In this document: positions 3,626-30,551 of the stretch, piece by piece
Numbering within the stretch: the first letter of the stretch is position 1
How the letters are laid out: each line of letters opens with the position of its first letter
NCBI GenBank assembly: GCA_963675515.1
Contig: OY776328.1
Coordinates: 1,860,001 to 1,892,000 of the forward strand
Source: Coprobacillaceae bacterium
Lineage (GTDB): Bacteria; Bacillota_I; Bacilli_A; Erysipelotrichales; Coprobacillaceae
Direction: 5' to 3'
Length of the DNA: 32,000 nt
Notes under the pieces: model-generated
Databases searched by the model: none
What the model saw: only the letters and a program-made list of their open reading frames with translations
What the model was told of the DNA's origin: nothing
Position numbers and translations under genes: made by a program

Positions 3626-3733
3626 AACTGGCAGCTTGCTATTGTCGCACATTGCACTATCGTCGCCGTTATGATGCTTAACTTCTGTGTTCGGGATGGG
3701 AACAGGTGTGTCCATCATGCCATCGTTACCAGA
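3626..3733 (-). rRNA. rrf: 5S ribosomal RNA
   Basis: The reverse complement reads TCTGGTAACGATGGCATGATGGACACACCTGTTCCCATCCCGAACACAGAAGTTAAGCATCAT...GCAAGCTGCCAGT. It has the conserved CCCGAACACAGAAGTTAAGC core and complementary ends for helix I. Confidence 0.9.
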
Positions 3734-3803
3734 TTGTTGAGTTTTCTTGAGATCACTCAAAACTAGATAATAATCGAATTGTTGTTTGTTGTCTTTGTCC
3801 AAT

Positions 3804-6704
<2,901 letters not shown>

Positions 6705-6964
6705 ATTGGTGTTTGATTAAACTTTTTTAGTTTTAGTTTTTTCTTAGTTTTTTTTCGACTTTTTCTAGAAAGACCACATAAATTGTTTTAAATCTATCTG
6801 GTTATAATTTTGGAAATTTTCATTTCCTCGATCTCTTTTCTATCTTTCGATTATTATCCAGTTTTCAATGATCTCTTGAGCAACCTCTCAGTTCACTCAA
6901 AACTAAACAGAATTTCTTCACAACTTTTGCTTTTGTCCAACCGACAAGTTGAACGGTTCTCCTT

Positions 6965-8493
<1,529 letters not shown>

Positions 8494-8854: not shown

Positions 8855-11800
8855 TTATAAAATAACTTCAGCAGCCAAACGATCTAATCGAGCACGACGT
8901 TTAACAGCATCTGATTCAGTCTTTTCCTTAAGTTCTTGTGCATGAACTGGATTGATACGCGCCAATTGAGCGTAACGAGTTTCACTATTCAAGAAATCTT
9001 GGAATTTTGTAAAATCTGGAGCTTTTGAATCCATTTGTAATGGGTTCTTACCTTCGGCTTCCAAGCGTGGATCGAATCTGAATAAGTTGAAGTATCCACA
9101 ATCAACCGCCGCTTTTTCCTGACGTTGATGCATTGCCATACCACCCTTGATACCATGTTGTTGGCATGGAGAGTAGGCGATAATCAATGAAGGTCCATCG
9201 TAAGCTTCCGCTTCTTTGATAGCTTTGATTGTTTGAGCGGTATTGGCACCCATTGCAATTTGGGCTACATATACATGCCCATAAGCCATTGCGATTTGAG
9301 CCAGATCCTTTTTCGCACCTTTTTTACCACCAGCAGTAAACTTGGCGATTGAAGCAGCTTGTGAAGATTTAGATGACTGACCACCTGTATTTGAATAGAT
9401 TTCAGTATCCAATACCAATATATTTACGTTTTCATCATTTGCCAGAACATGGTCTACACCGCCGTAACCGATGTCATAAGCCCATCCGTCACCACCGACG
9501 ATCCATTGTGATTTGGAAACAAGATCACGTTCAACTGCTTTTAGAGCTTTTATTCCTTCATTTTTAGAAGCATCAATCAATTCGATCAATTTAGGAGCAA
9601 TTTCACGTTCTTTTTCGCGATTACCCTTGTTTGAACGATATTCATCGATAACTGCTTTCAAATCGTCTTCAAGAGCATCATAGTTGTCTTCCATGACTTT
9701 CAAGATATAACCTTCTTGATAGTTGCTTGCAAGACGCATACCAAATCCATATTCCGCATTGTCTTCAAACAGTGAGTTGGCCCAAGCAGGTCCTTCGCCG
9801 TTTTCATCCACAGTGAATGGTGATGAAGGTGTAGAACCACAATAGATTGAAGTACATCCTGTAGCGTTGGCAATCAACATGTCTTTACCGAATAATTGGG
9901 TAACCAATCTGTAGTATGGAGTTTCCCCACATCCCGCACAGGCACCTGACACTTCAAAGTATGGACGTTTGAATCCGACTCCCTTTGCAGACACTGCTGG
10001 GTATTTGTCATCACGATATTTTGTTTCTTTGTACAGGTAGTTTGCCAATGGAGCATGAACCAGCTCAGCATGAACAGGCACCATTTCCAATGCCTTTACA
10101 CCTTTTTTACCTGGACATTCAATCATACAAGTTCCACAACCTACGCAGTTATCAGGTGAAATTTGGATTCTGTAGTGTAATCCCTCAACATTTTTACCGA
10201 CTGGAGTCAACACGTCATCACTGATATCTTCAGGTGCACCGGCCATCTCTTCATCTGTTAACAAGAATGCACGGATTGTCGCATGTGGACAAACCATAAC
10301 ACAAGTATTACATTGGATACAGTTCTCTTTGATCCATTTTGGGACTTGAGTCGCGATTGCACGGTGTTCTTCAAAAGCGATACCGGTTTTGAATGAACCG
10401 TCAAGCTTATCCGTAAACGCAGACGTAGGCAAATCGTATCCATCAAGTGAATTGATTACTGAAACAAATTCATCAAAGTATTCATCACCAGTTTTAGTAT
10501 TAGTAGTATTAACTGTCAATGAAGACCATTCAGCTTGAACCGGAACTTCAACCACTTGGTCTTTTCCAGCGTCAATTGCCTTGTAGTTCATCTCGACAAT
10601 TTCATCACCTTTTGCACCATATGATTTTTTAGCCATTTCTTTCATATAGCTTACAGCATCTTCGATAGGAAGAATTTGTGGGTTCATGGCAAAGAATGCA
10701 GATTGCAGAATTGTGTTGGTTCTACGACCCATACCGATCGATTCCGCGATTTGATTGGCGTTTATGATATAGAACTTAGCTTTTTTGTCAGCCAGTTGTT
10801 TCTTAACTCTGTTTGGCAGGTAGTCAACGATTTCTTCAGGAGTGAATTCGGTATTCAACAAGAAAGTACCACCTTCTTTTAAATCACGAAGCATGTCATA
10901 TTTGAGTACATAGTTGTCCAAAGACGAAGAAATGAAATCCGCCTGATTCACATAATAAGTGGCTTTGATTGGAGAATTCCCAAAACGCAAGTTAGATCTT
11001 GTTACCCCACCGGCTTTTTTAGAGTCATAAGCAAAATATGCTTGAGAATATAAATCAGTATGGTCGCCGATGATTTTGATTGACGATTTATTTGCAGAAA
11101 CCGTACCATCAGATCCCAAACCGTAGAATAGACAACCTGAATAATCCGCAACAACTTTGAATTCTTCATCAGCAGGCAATGACAAGTTAGTTACGTCATC
11201 GATAATACCGACTGTGAATCCATGGAAAGGTTCTTCTTTTGCAATGTGATCATAAACCGGTTTGATATCTTGAGGGCGTGTGTTTTTAGAAGAAAGTCCA
11301 TAACGTCCACCTACAATTGTTTTGACGTGATCTACGTCTTTCAACACAGACACAACATCCAGGTACAATGGTTCCCCAGTAGCGCCCATCTCTTTAGTAC
11401 GGTCCAAAACAGCTACGCTAGTCACTGTTTCAGGTAAAACTTTCAACAGATATTTTGCTGAGAAAGGACGATATAAATGGACTTTGATCAAACCAACTTT
11501 CTCACCAAGTCTGTTCATAGCATCTACTGTTTCAATGATAGTTTCAGTGACTGAACCCATCGCAATAATCACTCTTGTTGCATCAGGAGCACCATAATAT
11601 GTGAATGGAGCATATTCTCTGCCGGTTTCTTGCGAGATTTTGTCCATATAATCAGCAACAACTTCCACAACTTTATCATAATGAGCGTTTTGAGCTTCTC
11701 TTCCTTGGAAGTAGATATCATCATTTTCAGCCCCACCACGTAAAATTGGGTTTGTATGTGGATTTAAAGCATTGGCCTTGAATTTGGCAACAGCTTCTTT

Positions 11801-12388
11801 ATCAAGATATTTTTCCAGGACATCATAGTCCATTACTTCTACTTTTTGGATTTCATGAGATGTTCTGAATCCGTCAAAGAAATGCATAACAGGAACTGAA
11901 GCCTTGATTGCAGCCAAATGTGCAATACCACCTAAGTCCATTACTTCTTGAACCGAATGAGAACAAATCATTGGCATCCCGATTTGACGGCACGCATAAA
12001 TATCTTGGTGGTCACCAAAGATACTCAATGATCTTGTAGCCAAAGATCTTGCTGCAACATGGAAAACACCAGGCAGACATTCACCTTGAATTTTATACAT
12101 GTTTGGAATCATTAACAATAATCCCTGAGAAGCTGTAAATGTTGTTGATAAAGCTCCTCCTTGTAATGCGCCATGGACAGCACCTGCAGCACCTGCTTCA
12201 GATTGCATTTCAATGACATTTACCGGAGTTCCGAAAATATTTTTCTTTCCGTTTGCAGCCCATGCTTCTGCATGTTCAGCCATTGGAGAAGAAGGTGTGA
12301 TTGGATAAATGCTTGCAACTTCAGTAAACGCATATGAGACGTGAGCCGCTGCTTGGTTACCATCCATTGATAAAAACTTTTTAGCCAT
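8855..12388 (-). CDS. nifJ: Pyruvate:ferredoxin (flavodoxin) oxidoreductase, single-polypeptide type
   Basis: 1177 aa. It has two 4Fe-4S ferredoxin motifs (CIQCNTCVMVCP, CVGCGTCMIECP), the TPP-binding GGDGWAYDIGYGG motif, and the N-terminus MDGNQAAAHVSYAFTEVASIYPITPSSPMAE. GAGGAGG Shine-Dalgarno sits before the ATG. Confidence 0.97.
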   Translation of the reverse strand: MAKKFLSMDGNQAAAHVSYAFTEVASIYPITPSSPMAEHAEAWAANGKKNIFGTPVNVIEMQSEAGAAGAVHGALQGGALSTTFTASQGLLLMIPNMYKIQGECLPGVFHVAARSLATRSLSIFGDHQDIYACRQIGMPMICSHSVQEVMDLGGIAHLAAIKASVPVMHFFDGFRTSHEIQKVEVMDYDVLEKYLDKEAVAKFKANALNPHTNPILRGGAENDDIYFQGREAQNAHYDKVVEVVADYMDKISQETGREYAPFTYYGAPDATRVIIAMGSVTETIIETVDAMNRLGEKVGLIKVHLYRPFSAKYLLKVLPETVTSVAVLDRTKEMGATGEPLYLDVVSVLKDVDHVKTIVGGRYGLSSKNTRPQDIKPVYDHIAKEEPFHGFTVGIIDDVTNLSLPADEEFKVVADYSGCLFYGLGSDGTVSANKSSIKIIGDHTDLYSQAYFAYDSKKAGGVTRSNLRFGNSPIKATYYVNQADFISSSLDNYVLKYDMLRDLKEGGTFLLNTEFTPEEIVDYLPNRVKKQLADKKAKFYIINANQIAESIGMGRRTNTILQSAFFAMNPQILPIEDAVSYMKEMAKKSYGAKGDEIVEMNYKAIDAGKDQVVEVPVQAEWSSLTVNTTNTKTGDEYFDEFVSVINSLDGYDLPTSAFTDKLDGSFKTGIAFEEHRAIATQVPKWIKENCIQCNTCVMVCPHATIRAFLLTDEEMAGAPEDISDDVLTPVGKNVEGLHYRIQISPDNCVGCGTCMIECPGKKGVKALEMVPVHAELVHAPLANYLYKETKYRDDKYPAVSAKGVGFKRPYFEVSGACAGCGETPYYRLVTQLFGKDMLIANATGCTSIYCGSTPSSPFTVDENGEGPAWANSLFEDNAEYGFGMRLASNYQEGYILKVMEDNYDALEDDLKAVIDEYRSNKGNREKEREIAPKLIELIDASKNEGIKALKAVERDLVSKSQWIVGGDGWAYDIGYGGVDHVLANDENVNILVLDTEIYSNTGGQSSKSSQAASIAKFTAGGKKGAKKDLAQIAMAYGHVYVAQIAMGANTAQTIKAIKEAEAYDGPSLIIAYSPCQQHGIKGGMAMHQRQEKAAVDCGYFNLFRFDPRLEAEGKNPLQMDSKAPDFTKFQDFLNSETRYAQLARINPVHAQELKEKTESDAVKRRARLDRLAAEVIL

Positions 12389-22363: not shown

Positions 22364-22448
22364 TTATACATCCTTTCATTTCGTTTAATTACTATAACAT
22401 AGTTTTTCCAACAATAAAACAAAAACATTCGATTTTATCAAATAAAAT

Positions 22449-22472
22449 TAAAAAAAAGGACTTACGTCCTTT
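22449..22472 (-). terminator. Rho-independent terminator closing the long ntdp...asnS...dehydrogenase unit
   Basis: On the minus strand: AAGGAC-GTAA-GTCCTT followed by T8, starting at the TAA stop of the 22472-23845 gene. The sequence is identical to the rRNA operon terminator at 3596-3618. Confidence 0.8.
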
Positions 22473-23845
22473 TACAAGCGGTTTCTTTTCAGGTTGATAA
22501 GGAAAGCTTCTATATTCTTCTGGATTTCATCGATTACCCGGCTCCTTGTTTCAAAAGGCGCCCATGCTATATGGGGCGTCAAAATCAACTTGTTGGGATC
22601 CGAAACCTCGAAGAGGATCGAATCTTGTGGCAAGGGTTCGCTCTCAAAAACATCCAGGCCAGCACCTGCGATTTCGTTTTCGTTCAAGGCCCTTACCAGA
22701 TCAGCTTCATTGATGATCTTGCCCCGTCCGACATTGATGATAAAAGCACCCTTTTTCATCATCTTGAACGCATCATAGTCGAACAGGTTTAGTGTCGACT
22801 CATTCAAAGGGGCGTTGATTGAAATGAAATCACTGGTTGCCAAGGTCGTAGCGAAGTTCACTCTTTCATAGGGCTGATTAGAATTCATCCCCGAAGTCGA
22901 GTAATACTGAACCTTCATCCCCAACACAGTTGCGTATCTGGCCATCTCCTGGCCGATAGCACCCATACCGACGATTGTCAGAACTTTGTTGTCAAGCTCA
23001 TAGAAAGTGCTTGCAAAGTGGGAAAATGAATTCCCGCTTGAATATTCCTTGCTTTTGACAAAATTGTCGTAGTAAAGGAGATGATTGTTCAAAGCCATCA
23101 TCAAACTCAAGCCGTGACTGGCAACAGCTTTGGTCGAGTAGCCTTTCACATTGCAAGAGACAATGTCACACTCATGCAAGTATTCAAGATCAAGATTGTT
23201 GTATCCCGTGGCAGTTACACAGACTAGCTTTAAATCATCAAATCCCTGTAATGAATCTCCGTCCAAAAGCACCTTGTTTGTGATGATCACATCATGGTCC
23301 TTGGCCACTCCTTGCAAAGATTCTGCGTCATGGTAATCGCAAAATTCACCATAAGACCCGAACCGGCTCAAATCGATATCTTCGCCGATGCTGTTGGAAT
23401 CCAGAATCGCAATCCTGACCGGTTCCCAGTTGAACACGTTTTTCAAGAACTCCTCATTTTCCCTCGCAAATTGGCCCAGTCTTATCGCTTCGTTGACATC
23501 CAAAAATGGAGCATCCTTCAAAATCGCGACTGTCTTTCCAGACGTTGTTCGATATTCCACTGCGTTTTGCATCATCAAGATCCCCAGTGCCTGGTTGGTC
23601 GCTGGAGCGTACTTTTCATGATCTTCTTTAAGTTCAAGCAAAAAACCACTCTTGCAATCGATAGCCTTAAGTATTGCCTGATCCAGCGAGTCACATTGCA
23701 ATAAAATATCCTTGAATGTGTCATTGTAAATAAGGGGCAGGACATAATCATACAGGCTGATCTCGCAAGAACCGTAACCTTTGGTAAAAGAATATAGTAT
23801 GACCGCCCCCAATGACGAATCTTTCATGCCTTCAATCAAACTCAT
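22472..23845 (-). CDS. D-isomer-specific 2-hydroxyacid dehydrogenase (glycerate/hydroxypyruvate reductase-like) fused to an unassigned N-terminal domain of about 140 aa
   Basis: 457 aa. Residues ~143-457 make up a full 2-HADH. The sequence runs VRIAILDS...ATGYNNLDLEYL...GYSTKAVASH, with the NAD(P) loop GMGAIGQEMA. The catalytic candidates are Arg (NVGRGK), Glu (DVFESEP) and His (LTPHIAW). Residues 1-142 (MSLIEGMKDSSLGAVILYSFTKGYGSCEISLYDYVLPLIYNDTFKDIL...) are additional. Confidence 0.8.
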   Translation of the reverse strand: MSLIEGMKDSSLGAVILYSFTKGYGSCEISLYDYVLPLIYNDTFKDILLQCDSLDQAILKAIDCKSGFLLELKEDHEKYAPATNQALGILMMQNAVEYRTTSGKTVAILKDAPFLDVNEAIRLGQFARENEEFLKNVFNWEPVRIAILDSNSIGEDIDLSRFGSYGEFCDYHDAESLQGVAKDHDVIITNKVLLDGDSLQGFDDLKLVCVTATGYNNLDLEYLHECDIVSCNVKGYSTKAVASHGLSLMMALNNHLLYYDNFVKSKEYSSGNSFSHFASTFYELDNKVLTIVGMGAIGQEMARYATVLGMKVQYYSTSGMNSNQPYERVNFATTLATSDFISINAPLNESTLNLFDYDAFKMMKKGAFIINVGRGKIINEADLVRALNENEIAGAGLDVFESEPLPQDSILFEVSDPNKLILTPHIAWAPFETRSRVIDEIQKNIEAFLINLKRNRL

Positions 23846-23846
23846 A

Positions 23847-25310
23847 TCATATTAACGTCACCTTCAGACGCTGTCCTCCTGTCTTTTTTACATCCTCATA
23901 GACGCTGATGCAATAACGGAATTTGCGACGCTTATGGGAATATTTCAAAATATTGTAGCTAAGATAATGGCGTTTTTCCTCTTTGACGTAGCTTTGGGCC
24001 GATGAACCGGCCGAAACTACAGTCAGATTGCCATGGCGGATGCAACTTGGCAAATGGCGGTGGCCATGCAAAACGTATTTGACATCGTATGACTTTAGCC
24101 AGTAAAGCAACAAATCGGAGTCGATAAGCGCCTTGGAGTTGTCGATATAGCGTCCGATGAACATATTGTCGATCCACTTTTGTTTTAGAAACTCATCCCG
24201 ATGGATTGGGAACAGATGGTGATGGAGCATGACTATCAATGTGTAATCCTGCAAATTATCAATCGCCTCAAGTTCCTCATCGATTTCCTTAAGCTGGATT
24301 TGTCCAACCGATCCTCTGGCAAAATTGCCTTCAACCATCGAATTTATCTTGACGATGATTATCTTCTCGCTTTCAATGACCCGGATATTGTCACCAAGCA
24401 AATAGGCGACTATTTTTGTCTTTTGAGTGCGGAACAGATTCAATCCATGAGTGATTATATCATGGTTGCCAAGGACAAAATCAACCTTGCCATTATATCT
24501 TTTTTTTAACATGTTCATAAAACTCGTTACCTGATACATATTGGCAACCGTCGGCGAATTCATCAAGTCCCCTGTAATCAGGAACTTGGTCGGATATGAT
24601 GAATCGGTTTTTTTTATAATCTGGTCGATTGAAGAAAGCAAAAGCAGTTTGTGCTTCTCAGTGGCCTTGTTGTTTTTAAAATGAAGATCGCTTAGATGAA
24701 AGAAATAGGAATCCGTATTTTCAAAATCATAGCCAAATATAGTGTCATTGTCGATCATCGCAAAAGCTTCTTCAATATGTTCAGGTTCCCTTATCTTTAT
24801 AAAGCGGTATTGGTCATCTTTGAAAACCAGGATACCCGGCCATTTTTCAATATTCAAGATCCCTTTGATAAGGGCGTTGTAGGGACGCTGAAAAAGAAGT
24901 TCATTTTCGAACAGAATTTTGCGGCTGGTAAAAGTCCTTATTTTGTCACTTTGTAGCGACCGGACGTAGTCCAGGTTGGAAAAAATCCGGTTGACCTCGT
25001 AATCCTCGTCTAGTCCCGAGAAAAAGACAACTTGATATTTGCGCGTTTCAATATATTTGAAAGCCTGAAGCTGGTTGACGGAATCTTTTGAAAAGTGTCT
25101 TAATGTGTCTTCTTCGTTGTTGTCGTTTAATATGTCACGTTGAATGCCTTCGGTTATTTCATCTACGATGTCCAGATGGATGTCGTTGAAGGTCAACCAT
25201 TCCTTGATTATTGCCCTTCTTTGTTCATCCAGCAGGTAATCGAGGACAAAATAGCGCGAGTTGTTGAAAAGAAGCTGATAATAGGCATTGATGACATCAT
25301 AGTCGTTCAT
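23847..25310 (-). CDS. Calcineurin-like metallophosphoesterase with an unassigned N-terminal region of about 200 aa
   Basis: 487 aa. The MPE motifs appear in canonical order in the C-terminal half: HLSDLHF, ITGDLMN, LGNHD, MLHHH, HGHRH. The N-terminal 200 aa match nothing I recognise. The start is 12 nt after the asnS stop, and the stop is 1 nt before the next ATG. Confidence 0.8.
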   Translation of the reverse strand: MNDYDVINAYYQLLFNNSRYFVLDYLLDEQRRAIIKEWLTFNDIHLDIVDEITEGIQRDILNDNNEEDTLRHFSKDSVNQLQAFKYIETRKYQVVFFSGLDEDYEVNRIFSNLDYVRSLQSDKIRTFTSRKILFENELLFQRPYNALIKGILNIEKWPGILVFKDDQYRFIKIREPEHIEEAFAMIDNDTIFGYDFENTDSYFFHLSDLHFKNNKATEKHKLLLLSSIDQIIKKTDSSYPTKFLITGDLMNSPTVANMYQVTSFMNMLKKRYNGKVDFVLGNHDIITHGLNLFRTQKTKIVAYLLGDNIRVIESEKIIIVKINSMVEGNFARGSVGQIQLKEIDEELEAIDNLQDYTLIVMLHHHLFPIHRDEFLKQKWIDNMFIGRYIDNSKALIDSDLLLYWLKSYDVKYVLHGHRHLPSCIRHGNLTVVSAGSSAQSYVKEEKRHYLSYNILKYSHKRRKFRYCISVYEDVKKTGGQRLKVTLI

Positions 25311-25322
25311 CGTCCTGGCCTT

Positions 25323-26717
25323 TTAGAACTTAAGATTGCGAGGAGTTCTAGGATAAGCGACAACGTCACGGATATTAGAAACACCTGTCATGAACATTAC
25401 AAGACGTTCGAACCCGATTCCAAAACCGGCATGGTTTACTCCACCGAAGCGGCGCAAGTCAAGGTACCATTGCAATGCTTCTTTTTCAATTCCTTTTTCT
25501 TCCATCATTTGTTCAAGAACTTCATAACGCTCTTCTCTTTGAGAACCTCCGACCAATTCTCCGATTCCCGGCACAAGCAAGTCACATGCGGCAACGGTTT
25601 TGTTGTCATCATTCAAACGCATGTAGAATGCTTTGATGTCCTTAGGATAATTGATGATGAAGATTGGACCTTTGAACACCTGTTCACACAAATATTTTTC
25701 ATGTTCGCTGGCCAGGTCAATCCCCCAAGAAACCGGATTTTCAAATTCGACAGTCGCTTCCTGGAGCAATTCAATGGCATCAGTATAATCCAAACGTTTG
25801 AATTCGCTGTTAAGAACGGCACTAAGGCGGGTCACCAATGTCTTTTGTTTGTCAACGAAATCATTGAGGAATTCCATTTCCGCCGGTGCATTGTCCAAGA
25901 CATATTGGATGCAGAACTTGACGCAGTCTTCGATCAGGTCCATGTCGTCTTCAAGGTTCGCAAAAGCGATTTCCGGTTCAATCATCCAGAACTCCGAAGC
26001 ATGAGTTGAAGTGTTTGAGTTTTCAGCCCTGAAAGTAGGTCCGAAAGTATAGACATCCCTGAATGCCATCGCGAATGATTCGACGTGCAGCTGCCCTGAA
26101 ACTGTCAGTGAAGCGTGCTTTCCAAAGAAATCCTTGTCATAATTGTCATCAGATCTTGTGGTAACGGTAAACGTTTCTCCGGCACCTTCGGCATCATTTC
26201 CCGTGATGATCGGAGTTTGGACGTAGACAAATCCTTGTGATTGGAAAAACTCATGGATAGCCATTGCCAAAACCGAGCGGACCCGGAATGTCGCCAGATA
26301 TGTGTTGGCACGGGGGCGCAGATGGGGAATCTCACGCAGATATTCCAAAGTATGGCGTTTCTTTTGCAGTGGAAAATCTTCAGCGCATTTTCCTTCAACA
26401 ACCAATTCCGTAACTTCCACTTCGAAAGGCTGTTTTCCTTCTGGAGTCAGCTTGAATTTGCCTGTGACTTTGATCGCAGAACCAGTAGTCAATTTTGCCG
26501 CTTCGTCGAAATTTTCCAAAGTCTCTTCCAGATAGATCAACTGGATGTTTTTGAAGTATGTTCCATCATTAAGCGCAATGAAGCCGATCTTGCCGCTGTT
26601 GCGGTTGGTTTTGACCCAACCCTCAAGTTCAATCATGTCCAATCCTTCAAATTCCAATTCCTCACCATACAGAAACATTTCATACAGTTCTCTTACCGTC
26701 TTAAATTCAAACATCAT
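25323..26717 (-). CDS. asnS: Asparagine--tRNA ligase
   Basis: 464 aa, class IIb aaRS. It has an N-terminal OB-fold, motif 2 ([24 protein letters not shown]) and motif 3 ([10 protein letters not shown]). Spacing to the AGGAGA Shine-Dalgarno suggests the second ATG (26714) may be the true start. Confidence 0.95.
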
Positions 26718-26747
26718 ATCTCTCCTTTTATTGTTTTTAGCGCACTA

Positions 26748-27374
26748 TCAGCGCTTGCTGTGAATTTTGAGTGCCAACTCCTGAATTGCGGCAACCACAT
26801 CAACCGGTTTTACCTCAATTCCTTCGCGGACCGTGAAGTGGCTGTGGGTGAAGTCGACAATTCCCTTGACTCCCAAATCCATCAGCCGGTCGACTGTCTC
26901 CTGGATATTCTGGGAAATCGCAAGAATCGCAATTTCACAATCTTCAGGAAAAGTCTTCTCCAAATCATCGATGTGATGAACTTTCACTCCGAACAATTCA
27001 CCCTCTTTATTGCGGTCCATATCGTAGCAGCCGACAATTTTTCCTACCGTATACTGCCACCTGTTGTATTTTAAAATCGCCGAACCAAGATTTCCGACCC
27101 CGATCAAAATGATCGGAGACTCCAAACCGACTCCCAAAACCTCGGAAAGGCCATCAATCAGGTGTTTGACACTGTAGCCCTTGCCAGGCTTGCCAAAATT
27201 CTCATCCTTTGAAAGATAAGTCAAATCGCGACGGATTGTTGTGTCCTGGATTCCAGTCACCTCATAAAGCTCACTGGAAAGGACATTCTGTTTCCCTTCC
27301 AAGGCCATCTGGCGTAATGCTTTAAGGTATGTGGGAAACCGCGACATTGTCGCTTTTGAAATTACTTTTTCCAT
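26748..27374 (-). CDS. rex: Redox-sensing transcriptional repressor Rex
   Basis: 208 aa. The N-terminal winged-helix region (SRFPTYLKALRQM...VLSSELYEVTGIQDTTIRRDL) and the Rossmann NADH-binding loop LIGVGNLGSAI are present. The ATG overlaps the tsaD stop (TAATG). Confidence 0.92.
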   Translation of the reverse strand: MEKVISKATMSRFPTYLKALRQMALEGKQNVLSSELYEVTGIQDTTIRRDLTYLSKDENFGKPGKGYSVKHLIDGLSEVLGVGLESPIILIGVGNLGSAILKYNRWQYTVGKIVGCYDMDRNKEGELFGVKVHHIDDLEKTFPEDCEIAILAISQNIQETVDRLMDLGVKGIVDFTHSHFTVREGIEVKPVDVVAAIQELALKIHSKR

Positions 27375-28390
27375 TATATGCTCCTTGATTCGTTTTCTAT
27401 ATCGATATTTGGGCTGATTCCTAAATTAAAATCACTGAATTCATTATAATCATACATTAACTTTGCCGCTAGCGCAATCATCATCGCATTGTCACCGGTA
27501 AGTGAAAGGGGTGGCAGCCGCAAATCGATTTCCTTCTCTTTGCAAGCCGATTTCATCGCATCCCTCAGTCCGCTATTTGCGCTTACTCCTCCAGCCAACA
27601 TCAGGTGTGTGACGCCGTATTTTTCCAGCGCCGCCATCGTTTTGGAAACAAGAGAATTCACAACGACCCCCTGGAATGAAGCCGCCAGATCATCCTTGTT
27701 GATCGGTATGTTTTTTTGAACATGTTTGTGGTTCAAGTTGATCACTGCCGATTTGAGCCCGGAGAAGCTGAAATTCAGGCTTCCATCATCAAGTGGCTTG
27801 GGCAGATCATATGATGCTTTTCCGATTGCCGCCATCCTGTCGATGACCGGACCTCCAGGATAGGGCAGCTCGAGAACCCGGCCGACCTTGTCATAAGCCT
27901 CCCCTACCGCATCATCCAAGGTAGTTCCGATGATTTTGAAATTGAACTCCGACTCCATCAAAACCAATTCAGTGTGGCCCCCGGAAACTACCAGACAGAT
28001 GCAGGGATATATTATATCTTCAAAGATGTTGTTGGAAAAAATATGTCCGACGATATGATGGACCCCGATCAAAGGCAAACCGAAAGTAAGGGCCAGGGTT
28101 TTAGCCGCCTGAAGCCCGACATGAAGACTGCCGACCAGTCCGGGACCTTTAGTTACCGCAATCGCATCGATATCGTTCATCGTCACTCCGGCCTTGTCGA
28201 GAGTTTCTTTTAAGACAACAGTTACGGATTCGACATGTTTTCTTGAAGCAATTTCGGGAACAACCCCACCGTATTTTGCATGAATATCAATCTGCGAAGC
28301 GACAACACTGCTTAAAAAATCGCGTTTGTCTTTTAAAACGGCCATCGCCATCTCATCGCAACTAGACTCGATCGCCAAAATCAAGCTCAT
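27374..28390 (-). CDS. tsaD: tRNA N6-adenosine threonylcarbamoyltransferase
   Basis: The protein starts MSLILAIESSCDE, has the metal-binding GVHHIVGH motif, and is Kae1/TsaD-like over its whole length. The start is set at ATG 28390; the track start at 28399 is a TTG inside rimI. Confidence 0.95.
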   Translation of the reverse strand: MSLILAIESSCDEMAMAVLKDKRDFLSSVVASQIDIHAKYGGVVPEIASRKHVESVTVVLKETLDKAGVTMNDIDAIAVTKGPGLVGSLHVGLQAAKTLALTFGLPLIGVHHIVGHIFSNNIFEDIIYPCICLVVSGGHTELVLMESEFNFKIIGTTLDDAVGEAYDKVGRVLELPYPGGPVIDRMAAIGKASYDLPKPLDDGSLNFSFSGLKSAVINLNHKHVQKNIPINKDDLAASFQGVVVNSLVSKTMAALEKYGVTHLMLAGGVSANSGLRDAMKSACKEKEIDLRLPPLSLTGDNAMMIALAAKLMYDYNEFSDFNLGISPNIDIENESRSI

Positions 28391-28391
28391 A

Positions 28392-28826
28392 TTATTCAAA
28401 TCCTTTCATCATCAAATAGGCGTCATCACCATTGGCATAATAGTTCTTTCTTGTAGTCGCTATCTTAAAACCAAATTTCCGATACAGCTTGATGGCATCT
28501 TGGTTTTTTGTTCTAACTTCAAGATTTATATTGTCAAGATCATTATCTTTTGCCTGCTCGACCAGAAAAGATAACAACTTAGAGGCATTTTTCTGCCTCT
28601 GGTATTTCTTAAGTATTCCAATGTATGCGATCTCATAATTGTCATCCTGGTCATAATACTGGACAAAGCCGACAATATTCTCATTTTTCCCGATCAGATA
28701 GAGTTCACTGAAAGGATTCTTGTTGATCTCAAAATCGAGCTGTTCATCGCTCAATTTTGGGAAAAGCTGGTTGTAAATCGCTAAAACATCATCAAAATAT
28801 TTGTTTTTGTATTTCAAAATCTTCAT
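28392..28826 (-). CDS. rimI: GNAT acetyltransferase, ribosomal-protein-alanine N-acetyltransferase-like
   Basis: 144 aa with a GNAT core (IAYIGILKKYQRQKNASKLL). It occupies the conserved position between tsaB and tsaD. Confidence 0.8.
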   Translation of the reverse strand: MKILKYKNKYFDDVLAIYNQLFPKLSDEQLDFEINKNPFSELYLIGKNENIVGFVQYYDQDDNYEIAYIGILKKYQRQKNASKLLSFLVEQAKDNDLDNINLEVRTKNQDAIKLYRKFGFKIATTRKNYYANGDDAYLMMKGFE

Positions 28827-29416
28827 TAATTAAAAACTTCCTTTATATAATACGGCACGAGATTATCAGTATTTTCGACGTATTTTTCTCCTTTAGAACA
28901 TTCATATATATTCTTTACTAAATCAACAGGTTTGTCGCTTTGACCGATCAACTCCAGATCTCCAAATATATCCAGATCAGGATATCGGTCCTTATACTCA
29001 CCTATTTCACTTACGTTTACCAAACAGTCCCTTACTATGGGCTTGCCGGATTTGTATATTCCCAGATACGCCTTTTTCGAACGGGCATCGATTAAACCAA
29101 TACCGCTTCCATTTTCAACTATGGCCTTGAGTGAAGAGACTGCCTTGATTTTTATATTGGTAGTGGCAGCTATAGTTTTGGCAATCGTCAGGGCAACCCG
29201 GACACCTGTATATGAACCTGGTCCGATGGTGATGACAATCTCATCAAAATCCAAAACCGAAAGTTTATTGGCAGCCAACAATTCGTGCAATTTTTCCAAC
29301 GCCTGCTCAGACTGGCGCCGATTGCCATAATCCTGAAACTTGCCAAGACATTTGCCGTTTTCAAAAAGGCCCACTGCCAGATATTTATTTGCGGTATCCA
29401 AGACAATTGTTTTCAT
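28826..29416 (-). CDS. tsaB: tRNA threonylcarbamoyladenosine biosynthesis protein TsaB
   Basis: 196 aa. The protein starts MKTIVLDTANKYLAVGL and contains ITIGPGSYTGVRVALTIAKT. The stop and the rimI start overlap (TAATG). Confidence 0.9.
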   Translation of the reverse strand: MKTIVLDTANKYLAVGLFENGKCLGKFQDYGNRRQSEQALEKLHELLAANKLSVLDFDEIVITIGPGSYTGVRVALTIAKTIAATTNIKIKAVSSLKAIVENGSGIGLIDARSKKAYLGIYKSGKPIVRDCLVNVSEIGEYKDRYPDLDIFGDLELIGQSDKPVDLVKNIYECSKGEKYVENTDNLVPYYIKEVFN

Positions 29417-29856
29417 GGCAATACCTCCACGAGTTCCAGATATTTTTGTCCTGACGGCTTGAAGACGACCTTGCGGCTGACTTCATCCAAGTATTCGATC
29501 ACTATATCAAGCCTTTGTTCAGGTAGTATTTCCTCGATAAAGTCCGCCCATTCGATTATCGAGACATCATCGCTGTAAATCAGATCCTCGAATCCCAGGT
29601 CTATGTCCTGCCCCTCGAGGCGGTAGGCGTCAAAATGATTGAGATTGAGCCTGCCTTGATATTGCTTCAAAATGGTGAATGTCGGTGATGATACGACTTT
29701 ATCGATACCCATTCCTTTGGCTATGCCTTTGGTGAAGGTGGTCTTTCCTGCGCCAAGATCGCCACTCAAGGTCAGCACCATGCCCCGGCTCAGGTTTTCA
29801 CCAAGCTTTTTGCCTAGTGCCAAGGTCTCTTCTACTGAGTTGCAAATTATTTCCAT
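29413..29856 (-). CDS. tsaE: tRNA threonylcarbamoyladenosine biosynthesis ATPase TsaE
   Basis: 147 aa. It has the Walker A motif GDLGAGKTTFTKG and SPTFTI. It overlaps tsaB by 4 nt (ATGA). Confidence 0.92.
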   Translation of the reverse strand: MEIICNSVEETLALGKKLGENLSRGMVLTLSGDLGAGKTTFTKGIAKGMGIDKVVSSPTFTILKQYQGRLNLNHFDAYRLEGQDIDLGFEDLIYSDDVSIIEWADFIEEILPEQRLDIVIEYLDEVSRKVVFKPSGQKYLELVEVLP

Positions 29857-30392
29857 ACATAGTCCTCCCTTAAATCCTGGTACACATGATACCAGTGCTT
29901 GGTAAACTCAGGATTGAAAGGTCCTTTTTGGTTCACTGCCATTTCAATAAGCAACTCCAGCTGACGATTGAGAATCGAATCGAGTTTGTCGCTGTAATTC
30001 ATAAGTTGCTTGTGACGCTTGTACTCTTCCTCGTCAAGGACCCGATACCGGCCATCGGGAAAGAGTTTGAGATCAAGGTCGTAGTCGATATATTTTAGAG
30101 CTTCACCATCATAGATTGTAGGCGACGCAATATTGCAGTAGTAATGGACTCCGTTCTTTCGGATCATACATATTACATTGAACCATTTATCTTTAGGGAA
30201 ATAACAAATCGCAGGTTCGCGGGTGTGCCACATCCGGCCATCCGATTCAGTAACAAGTGTTTTATTATTGATGACGATAAAGTGTTCATCGGTTTCTTCC
30301 AAAACCAGGCCGGTTTGCCAAGAACGATGAATACTGCCATCATGTTTGTAACAATGGATCAAAATATTTTTGCCCGAAAGACTATCTTCCAT
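29847..30392 (-). CDS. ntdp: DUF402 / UPF0374 family nucleoside tri- and diphosphatase (YgaC/Ntdp-like)
   Basis: 181 aa from ATG 30392 (AGAGAGG lies 6 nt upstream; the track start at 30413 is a TTG). The sequence KHDGSIHRSWQ...YFPKDKWFNVICMIR...YYCNIASP...YIDYDLDLKLFPDG is typical of this family. Confidence 0.85.
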   Translation of the reverse strand: MEDSLSGKNILIHCYKHDGSIHRSWQTGLVLEETDEHFIVINNKTLVTESDGRMWHTREPAICYFPKDKWFNVICMIRKNGVHYYCNIASPTIYDGEALKYIDYDLDLKLFPDGRYRVLDEEEYKRHKQLMNYSDKLDSILNRQLELLIEMAVNQKGPFNPEFTKHWYHVYQDLREDYVWK

Positions 30393-30551
30393 AACGTACC
30401 TCTCTTTAAACAAATTATATTATACACAAATTATGCCCGAAATAATAGTAAAAGCTATCATAAATTGCCACGGCTTGCAACAAAAAAATTGCAAAGTGAA
30501 AAATAAATTTCATTTTGTGATTTAATTAACTTGGTTTTTTAGTCAATTCCC

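Follow-up and report, generated by a model that had tools for sequence, protein, structure and literature searches.

The stretch of DNA analysed here, called the window in the following, comprises 32,000 nucleotides (nt) of a Coprobacillaceae bacterium (GenBank assembly GCA_963675515.1, contig OY776328.1, positions 1,860,001 to 1,892,000 of the forward strand), and contains on its minus strand a pair of genes, gene 1 and gene 2, that are predicted to encode a metallophosphoesterase and a D-2-hydroxyacid dehydrogenase fused to an N-terminal MC3 domain. The pair constitutes the last, tightly coupled cistrons of a DUF402-tsaE-tsaB-rimI-tsaD-rex-asnS array. Its features, in window coordinates, are the following:

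23847..25310, minus strand, gene 1, putative metallophosphoesterase, an open reading frame (ORF) of 487 amino acids (aa)
24726..25310, minus strand, N-domain of gene 1, aa 1-195
23847..24725, minus strand, predicted catalytic domain of gene 1, aa 196-487
23843..23849, minus strand, TGA-T-ATG junction between gene 1 and gene 2, read from the sequence
22472..23845, minus strand, gene 2, putative MC3-fused D-2-hydroxyacid dehydrogenase, an ORF of 457 aa
23417..23845, minus strand, N-domain of gene 2 (predicted MC3/LmuC), aa 1-143
22472..23416, minus strand, predicted dehydrogenase core of gene 2, aa 144-457

The letters at the junction are GTG ACG TTA ATA TGA / T / ATG AGT, with the stop codon of gene 1 at 23849-23847 followed by one base and the start codon of gene 2 at 23845-23843, and the two genes are predicted to be translationally coupled. 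The asnS gene ends with a TAA codon at 25325-25323 and the ATG of gene 1 is at 25310, with an AGGA Shine-Dalgarno-like element in the 12-nt spacer. A terminator scan found no terminator-like site between asnS and gene 1 or between gene 1 and gene 2. A previous sequence-only reading of this DNA had described the sizes and the TGA-1nt-ATG packing of the two ORFs, the distance of 12 nt to the asnS stop, a hairpin and T-run directly after the pair, and the position of the pair as last cistrons of the array that begins with the DUF402 gene, and all of this was confirmed in the sequence and by the terminator scan. The flanking features of the unit are:

25311..25322, minus strand, spacer of 12 nt from the asnS stop to the gene 1 start, aaggccaggacg, read from the sequence
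22446..22473, minus strand, intrinsic terminator-like hairpin AAAAGGACGTAAGTCCTTTT with a T-run (22473-22454) at the end of the unit, from the terminator scan and direct reading
25323..30413, minus strand, upstream co-oriented asnS, rex, tsaD, rimI, tsaB, tsaE and DUF402 genes, from ORFs and from Pfam annotation of the orthologous loci
29847-30413, minus strand, DUF402 gene, first of the array, from Pfam

We take DUF402 to be the family of Ntdp-type nucleoside di/triphosphatases, in which case the array has genes of nucleotide hydrolase type at both ends, with the DUF402 gene first and a phosphoesterase of a presumably nucleotide-directed clade last. The remaining window contains core housekeeping genes for pyruvate:ferredoxin oxidoreductase, pyruvate phosphate dikinase, a DEAD-box helicase and acetate kinase, and a complete ribosomal RNA (rRNA) operon at 3626-8492 on the minus strand (5S at 3626-3733, 23S at 3803-6703, 16S at 6967-8492), located downstream of the pyruvate:ferredoxin oxidoreductase gene (8855-12388).

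Domains of the two proteins

The Pfam family Metallophos matches residues 203-420 of the gene 1 product, and both Metallophos and Metallophos_2 exceed their cutoffs. The motifs HLSDLHF (205-211), ITGDLMN (245-251), GNHD (281-284), HHH (363-365) and GHRH (416-419) are present, and residues D208, H210, D248, N282, H283, H363, H364, H415, H417 and H419 are invariant in 96 orthologues. By these motifs the protein is assigned to the calcineurin-like metallophosphoesterase superfamily with all metal-binding motifs intact, and it is predicted to be an active-type phosphoesterase of the Calcineurin-CE type. The best NCBIfam match is DS9_1_antiphage ("anti-phage phosphoesterase") with an E-value of 5e-22 and 78 bits, compared to about 1e-8 for generic phosphodiesterases, and the next matches are cAMP and other phosphodiesterases, not sugar-acid phosphatases. 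An alignment of 96 gene 1 sequences matched bona fide DS-9A in hhalign with a probability of 98.6%, an E-value of 6e-16 and 29% identity spanning the whole catalytic domain. These comparisons place the DS-9A/MisA/PUA-Cal effector as the nearest characterised relative of the putative catalytic domain. DS-9 is a validated two-gene defence consisting of a metallophosphatase and a HAD phosphatase (PMC13092281), and DS-9, Metis (MisA/MisB) and PUA-Cal-HAD have the same two-gene composition. The DS-9A used in this alignment comes from a bona fide DS-9/Metis operon on the Klebsiella plasmid NZ_AP021931.1 (L074, 3867-6349), where a phosphoesterase of 549 aa, scoring 572 bits on DS9_1, precedes a HAD hydrolase in a defence island with a restriction endonuclease, a hypothetical protein of 1040 aa, and Hachiman HamA with its helicase as flanking genes. 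In a Foldseek search the top PDB match of gene 1 was Bacillus subtilis YydB from a model of the YydD-YydB complex (9a6c_B, E 6e-12), with a TM-score of 0.41 that is no better than those of SMPDL3A or GpdQ.

The N-domain of gene 1 is modelled by AlphaFold2 (AF2) as a helical bundle (residues 3-88) and an alpha/beta subdomain (92-187) that contains an invariant W157-P158 motif, followed by the phosphoesterase domain (predicted local distance difference test, pLDDT, 85; predicted template modelling score, pTM, 0.87). No Pfam family matches this domain in the 96 orthologues, including PUA, ASCH and EVE, and residues 1-198 fail to align in hhalign with residues 1-190 of DS-9A. Sequence searches of the PDB with the N-domain of either gene, as single sequence or as profile, gave no meaningful match. 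A thioredoxin-like fold for residues 92-187, suggested by the order of strands and helices and by the invariant W-P before strand 3, would be a speculative assignment that did not reach significance, as hhalign to E. coli TrxA covered only the cis-Pro/beta3-beta4 segment at a probability of 1-2%.

In an exhaustive profile search with gene 1, E<=1e-3 was reached by 1703 proteins, 136 of which had E<=1e-30, and many of those retrieved are proteins of 500-576 aa with the full gene 1 architecture including the N-domain motifs. The members of this wider family (for example L069 of Chitinophagaceae, and P0247-P0312) are 20-27% identical to gene 1 and keep the LLPG strand, a D-x-W-P-G motif and all catalytic motifs. 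In the inspected contexts each is a solo gene, in most cases with genes of the mobile or conflict type next to it, and neither a dehydrogenase nor an MC3 gene adjoins it. The adjoining genes are:

L069 (6503-8116), IS91 transposases and an integrase
L077, IS21-type genes, transposases and AIPR
L078, pYEATS and AIPR
L079 and L080, nSTAND3/IstB and HD-CE
L075, PIN and GIY-YIG
L162, a RES-domain protein
L161, the exception, a radical-SAM/NTP-transferase cluster

PADLOC (v2) does not recognise the family, and its solo members are candidate single-gene conflict or defence proteins.

Gene 2 is matched in Pfam by 2-Hacid_dh and 2-Hacid_dh_C (PF00389, PF02826) and by MC3 (PF20131), the latter at residues 12-99 with 25.4 bits against a gathering cutoff of 23.2. 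Of the 93 full-length orthologues, 86 contain MC3 according to Pfam (best E 1.5e-8), and the LmuC model of PADLOC matches residues 16-141, covering model positions 20-147 of 163, and matches nine of 22 diverse N-domains with a best E-value of 3e-6. The predicted identity of this N-domain as MC3/LmuC, the middle component of ABC-3C/Lamassu, is therefore robust. In type II Lamassu the small subunit is MC3/LmuC, which connects LmuB, an SMC-like protein, to the non-catalytic domain of the effector. In Lamassu structures LmuC contacts the C-terminal domain of the effector and also touches DNA. The sequence-only reading had considered the N-terminal regions of both proteins to be private; both are indeed extra domains, of which that of gene 2 can now be named and that of gene 1 matches no Pfam family. 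That the fusion of MC3 to the dehydrogenase is an assembly or frameshift artefact is ruled out by its presence in 86 of 93 orthologues. A word-indexed protein search with the 149-aa N-terminus of gene 2 alone gave no matches, the orthologues being recovered with the full-length query, which retrieved more than 100 full-length homologues, and a metagenome scan seeded on the MC3 domain gave only orthologous fusions and no free-standing relatives of LmuC.

In the AF2 model of gene 2 (pLDDT 92.8, pTM 0.88) the N-domain, which is helical and includes a beta-hairpin, packs against a dehydrogenase of canonical fold. The motifs GMGAIG (293-298), VGRGK (372-376), FESEP (400-404) and TPHIAW (423-428) are found in the core, where R374, E403, H425 and the glycines G293, G295 and G298 are invariant in 93 orthologues; all phosphoesterase and dehydrogenase motifs quoted in the sequence-only reading are thus present, with invariant catalytic residues. 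With both domains, the GxGxxG loop and the Arg-Glu-His triad, gene 2 is predicted to be a D-isomer-specific 2-hydroxyacid dehydrogenase, and the invariance of the triad suggests real catalysis. The NCBIfam model PRK08410 (D-2-hydroxyacid dehydrogenase) gives 355.7 bits, below the equivalog cutoff of 389. The core has its closest structural counterparts in 5tx7, with a target-normalised TM-score (TMt) of 0.9, and in the glyoxylate/hydroxypyruvate reductases, and CtBP is a near match too. The cofactor loop GMGAIG...KVQYYSTSG (aa 293-315, window 22901-22969, minus strand) has no acidic residue at the end of beta-B, and Y314, S316, T317 and G319 are invariant in this region. Strict NAD+ enzymes typically have this acidic residue, and its lack suggests that gene 2 is compatible with NADP(H) and does not strictly use NAD+.

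Conservation, coupling and selection

A search with gene 1 gave 193 homologues at E<=1e-3, and those listed are mostly full length and show 36-46% identity beyond the close relatives, the named ones all belonging to Coprobacillaceae or Erysipelotrichales. Together with the more than 100 full-length homologues of gene 2 and the low dN/dS given below, this indicates that both are real genes and not chance ORFs. In a scan of species-representative genomes 64 loci were found, in the genera Thomasclavelia, Faecalibacillus, Beduini, Kandleria, Sharpea, Eggerthia, Massilimicrobiota, Longibaculum, Stoquefichus, Coprobacillus and Fimiplasma and in metagenome-assembled genomes (MAGs). The gene order tsaD-rex-asnS-phosphoesterase-dehydrogenase is present in most of the surveyed loci and in at least 12 genera, and the pair behaves as a vertically inherited core gene pair that is the rule across Coprobacillaceae. 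It had been regarded as an appendage to the housekeeping unit, a view that the distribution contradicts. The sequence-only reading had also named a loss of the neighbourhood outside close relatives as evidence that would speak against its proposal of a two-gene module; the pair is kept far beyond the close relatives, and the proposal stands on this point. A recent horizontally acquired island is ruled out by the conserved synteny together with the lack of a GC break and of mobility genes, none of which were seen near the pair in the window.

Outside the closest relatives, the identity to the window proteins is 69-81% for asnS, 43-55% for the catalytic domain of the phosphoesterase, 41-53% for the dehydrogenase core, 29-40% for the MC3 domain and 18-32% for the phosphoesterase N-domain. 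In about 50 orthologous loci the inferred start of gene 2 is close to or overlaps the stop of gene 1, the distance being mostly -32 to +17 nt with one locus at +41, and with a few ambiguous start calls at -71 to -80 nt. Eighty metagenome loci were seeded on the MC3 domain. Among those with flanks long enough for the comparison, 65 of 68 have the phosphoesterase upstream of MC3, and 69 of 73 have the dehydrogenase core downstream of it.

The departures from this arrangement are informative. A dehydrogenase of about 320 aa lacking MC3, still abutting the phosphoesterase, is found in four lineages (L020, L024, Kandleria L036 and L052), and the phosphoesterase has no adjacent dehydrogenase match in six loci (L031, L033, Beduini L034, L060, L062 and L068). 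One locus, L085 (5001-6383), encodes an MC3-dehydrogenase of 460 aa with no phosphoesterase upstream; a ROK kinase gene is at the position of the phosphoesterase, and an ECF S component gene and scpAB are located downstream. In L052 (8439-10321) the phosphoesterase is followed by tandem dehydrogenases, neither with MC3 and the second split in two ORFs. In L007 (9437-11009) the pair has moved and follows a pyruvate:ferredoxin oxidoreductase gene rather than asnS, and two separate, overlapping ORFs are called, one of 233 aa for the MC3 part and one of 304 aa for the dehydrogenase part, the fusion probably being split by a frameshift in this MAG. The gap between asnS and the phosphoesterase gene is about 620 nt in Faecalibacillus faecis (L027, 6377-7001), compared to 12-100 nt elsewhere. 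In several genera the genes scpA-scpB, encoding the kleisin and KITE subunits of the chromosomal SMC complex, are located 0-8 kb downstream of the pair (L036 at 9431-10766, L052, L053, L055, L062, L063, L085 and L135-L160), in Kandleria (L036) directly after the dehydrogenase, and they are not found in the window. This proximity is curious because MC3/LmuC normally partners an SMC-like protein, and is probably ancestral synteny.

Both genes are under strong purifying selection. Compared to the closest relative, the two domains of the phosphoesterase each have a ratio of nonsynonymous to synonymous substitution rates (dN/dS) of about 0.03, and the two domains of the dehydrogenase each have one of about 0.07. 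The ratio is 0.011-0.014 for asnS, rex and the helicase, all values being rough since dS is saturated. The dN of the pair is 3-6 times that of the flanking housekeeping genes, and a crude test gave no sign of positive selection on the pair.

Possible roles of the pair

We tentatively favour the explanation that the pair is a two-enzyme module made from conflict-system parts, which would work by Metis-like logic and is now a fixed part of a core operon in this lineage. It is supported by the ancestry of the domains, by the wider family of solo genes, by the conserved coupling, by the invariant catalytic residues and low dN/dS of both enzymes, by the contact of LmuC with the effector in Lamassu and by the precedent of Metis. 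In that system NAD+ is hydrolysed when m6dAMP is sensed, and the phosphoesterase alone defends, while the partner enzyme MisB clears the basal signal and so prevents the toxicity of the phosphoesterase (bioRxiv 10.1101/2025.11.05.686725). PUA-Cal and its HAD partner form a complex (10.64898/2026.01.15.699771). Judged by analogy, Metis-like logic would be the most economical reading, and the two proteins would act as one unit in which the MC3 domain tethers the dehydrogenase to the phosphoesterase, as LmuC contacts the non-catalytic domain of the effector in Lamassu. The N-domain of gene 1 would be a sensor of a ligand or state, and the phosphoesterase would hydrolyse a nucleotide-type substrate, for example NAD(P)(H) or (d)NDP/(d)NTP. 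A role like that of the HAD phosphatase MisB in Metis would fall to the dehydrogenase, which would remove or convert the activating metabolite or couple the activity to the NAD(P)H state, thereby keeping a potentially toxic hydrolase in check. Such a module would descend from a mobile solo effector and a Lamassu-type adaptor before its fixation in the core operon, and the trigger may be phage infection or an endogenous metabolic state (nucleotide/NAD(P) homeostasis). The precedent of Metis, where the phosphoesterase acts alone, fits both the six loci lacking the dehydrogenase and the four lineages lacking MC3.

Several observations weigh against this explanation. The 78 bits of gene 1 on DS9_1 are far under the cutoff of 420 bits, and since this is an equivalog cutoff gene 1 should represent a related clade and not the same family. 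The family-level fixed synteny is typical of housekeeping genes and not of defence modules, and strong purifying selection is likewise atypical for the latter. The GC content is 0.38-0.47 over the pair, the same as in the flanks, so that there is no compositional break, as the sequence-only reading had judged by eye. In L085 the MC3-dehydrogenase occurs with no phosphoesterase upstream. Finally, the N-domain of gene 1 is kept where MC3 is absent (L020, L024, L036, L052) and in the solo relatives, indicating that MC3 binding is not its primary role. The architecture had been read from the sequence alone as that of a sensor/effector module of the conflict type, and the part of this that holds is the ancestry, as the domains trace to conflict systems; the vertical inheritance in the core genome and the purifying selection are atypical of defence.

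A bolder form of the favoured explanation, which we consider doubtful, is that an immune-type effector module resides in a core translation/redox operon, where a redox enzyme docked by MC3 gates a nucleotide- or NAD(P)-degrading phosphoesterase with no SMC ATPase, either as a family-wide core system of abortive infection or as a domesticated control of nucleotides and NAD(P). In a still more speculative version MC3 docks on the housekeeping Smc-ScpAB complex.

Among the other explanations, two-step metabolism is unlikely, and would mean that a phosphorylated 2-hydroxy or 2-oxo acid such as phosphoglycerate or phosphoglycolate is dephosphorylated and the product then oxidised or reduced, the N-domains being lineage-specific structural or regulatory additions with no role in conflict. 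The core-genome behaviour, the housekeeping neighbours, the purifying selection and the intact active sites all agree with it, as does a dehydrogenase core nearest to the glyoxylate/hydroxypyruvate reductases (5tx7) that stays coupled to the phosphoesterase even where MC3 is lost. However, among characterised proteins the phosphoesterase is closest to an antiphage effector directed at nucleotides or NAD, and its next matches are not sugar-acid phosphatases; the more distant members of its family stand alone with no dehydrogenase, in most cases next to mobile or conflict-type genes, six loci have the phosphoesterase with no adjacent dehydrogenase, and MC3 is otherwise known only from Lamassu/ABC-3C, so that these family affinities would be left unexplained. 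The conversion of phosphoglycerate to hydroxypyruvate, which had been offered as the sober alternative in the sequence-only reading, found no specific support, the phosphoesterase belonging by its matches to a nucleotide-directed clade.

We give an equally low chance to a working system of abortive infection fixed in the core genome, in which the phosphoesterase, once activated by phage infection, would deplete NAD(P) or (d)NTPs, with the dehydrogenase as a guard or co-effector. The domain ancestry is the same as under the favoured explanation, DS-9, Metis and PUA-Cal-HAD are validated defences that combine a phosphoesterase with a partner enzyme, and the elevated dN of the pair relative to its housekeeping flanks points in the same direction. 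Yet vertical inheritance throughout a family at one locus, down to 33-46% identity, is unusual for defence, no neighbouring defence genes were found in the 32-kb window or in the annotated orthologous loci, the crude test showed no sign of positive selection, and neither PADLOC nor NCBIfam calls a system.

It is very improbable that the pair is a remnant or trans-acting Lamassu, that is, an effector-MC3 pair relying either on an SMC-like ATPase from a gene elsewhere in the genome or on the chromosomal Smc-ScpAB, the dehydrogenase being in the position of LmuB. The order of effector and MC3 matches lmuA-lmuC-lmuB, the top structural match of the phosphoesterase is YydB (9a6c_B, E 6e-12) from YydBCD, which we take to be a Lamassu system, and scpA-scpB is 0-8 kb downstream of the pair in several genera. 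Against this, no ABC or SMC ATPase was found among the scanned ORFs of the 32-kb window or in the annotated orthologous loci, a search that did not extend to the remainder of the genome, the phosphoesterase has no ABC-3C C-terminal domain (CTD) and a catalytic domain that is C-terminal, unlike LmuA, the match to YydB (TM 0.41) is no better than those to SMPDL3A and GpdQ, and the proximity to scpAB is absent in the lineage of the window and looks like ordinary synteny. Least probable, by a little, is that gene 2 is an NAD(P)H-responsive DNA-binding regulator of gene 1 or other genes, similar to Rex or CtBP. In favour of this, LmuC contacts DNA in a Lamassu structure, the core closely matches the structure of CtBP, a corepressor that senses NADH, rex is two genes upstream of the pair, and the N-domain consists of helices and a beta-hairpin in the AF2 model. 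Against it, none of the 93 orthologues departs from the catalytic Arg, Glu and His, no DNA-binding family match was obtained for gene 2, MC3 is lost in four lineages that keep the enzyme, and Rex-type operators are not above chance (two matches with three mismatches, 3.6 expected).

If the favoured explanation of a lineage-fixed module is true, this would be the first MC3/LmuC domain outside SMC-based Lamassu and the first fused to a metabolic dehydrogenase. It would also be the first case in which a relative of the Metis/DS-9 effector is a core gene passed on vertically throughout an entire family of bacteria. The pair would then be a tractable case for the domestication of an immune module, or for a defence entering the core genome. 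The work also defines a wider, unannotated family of solo phosphoesterases with a new N-terminal domain. Since Coprobacillaceae (Thomasclavelia, Faecalibacillus, Longibaculum, Sharpea and others) are common in the gut, the module should be abundant in human and animal microbiomes.

Comparison with known systems

None of the described systems includes the pair. It is not classified as a system by PADLOC or NCBIfam, and the literature that was searched contains no description of it. Like Metis and DS-9 it is a two-gene operon in which gene 1 has a sensor-type N-domain of about 190 aa and a C-terminal phosphoesterase of the same or a related clade, gene 2 encodes a second small-molecule enzyme and is tightly coupled, and the phosphoesterase, as MisA, can occur without its partner. 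Unlike these systems, the N-domain of gene 1 is not PUA-like, since it gives no alignment and is modelled as a helical bundle with an alpha/beta subdomain, the partner is an MC3-bearing 2-hydroxyacid dehydrogenase and not a HAD phosphatase, with no HAD gene adjoining the phosphoesterase in the annotated orthologous loci, and the pair is not known to have a defence phenotype and is located in a core housekeeping operon and not in a defence island. Lacking both a PUA domain and a HAD partner, it is placed outside Metis.

With Lamassu and the ABC-3C systems (LmuA-LmuC-LmuB; DdmABC) the pair shares a putative MC3/LmuC-family domain, detected by two libraries of hidden Markov models, directly downstream of an enzyme-effector gene, as in lmuA-lmuC. 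It differs in that no SMC/Rad50-like LmuB was found in the window or in the annotated orthologous loci, that MC3 is fused to the dehydrogenase and not a separate protein, that gene 1 has no recognised ABC-3C CTD (families CTD1-12 gave no match in 96 orthologues at E<=0.1) and carries its catalytic domain C-terminally, and that the pair is neither mobile nor patchily distributed. It is placed outside Lamassu because LmuB and the C-terminal domain of the effector are missing.

Gene 2 resembles the dehydrogenases of the glyoxylate/hydroxypyruvate reductase type (PRK08410; 5tx7, 5aov, 2dbq) in its complete two-domain fold, triad and GxGxxG loop, being about 30% identical to solved D-2-hydroxyacid dehydrogenases, and differs from them by the N-terminal MC3 of 143 aa, the YYSTSG loop with no acidic residue and the obligate coupling to a phosphoesterase. 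The phosphoesterases of 500-576 aa, although they are solo genes and mostly found in mobile or conflict contexts, are like gene 1 from end to end.

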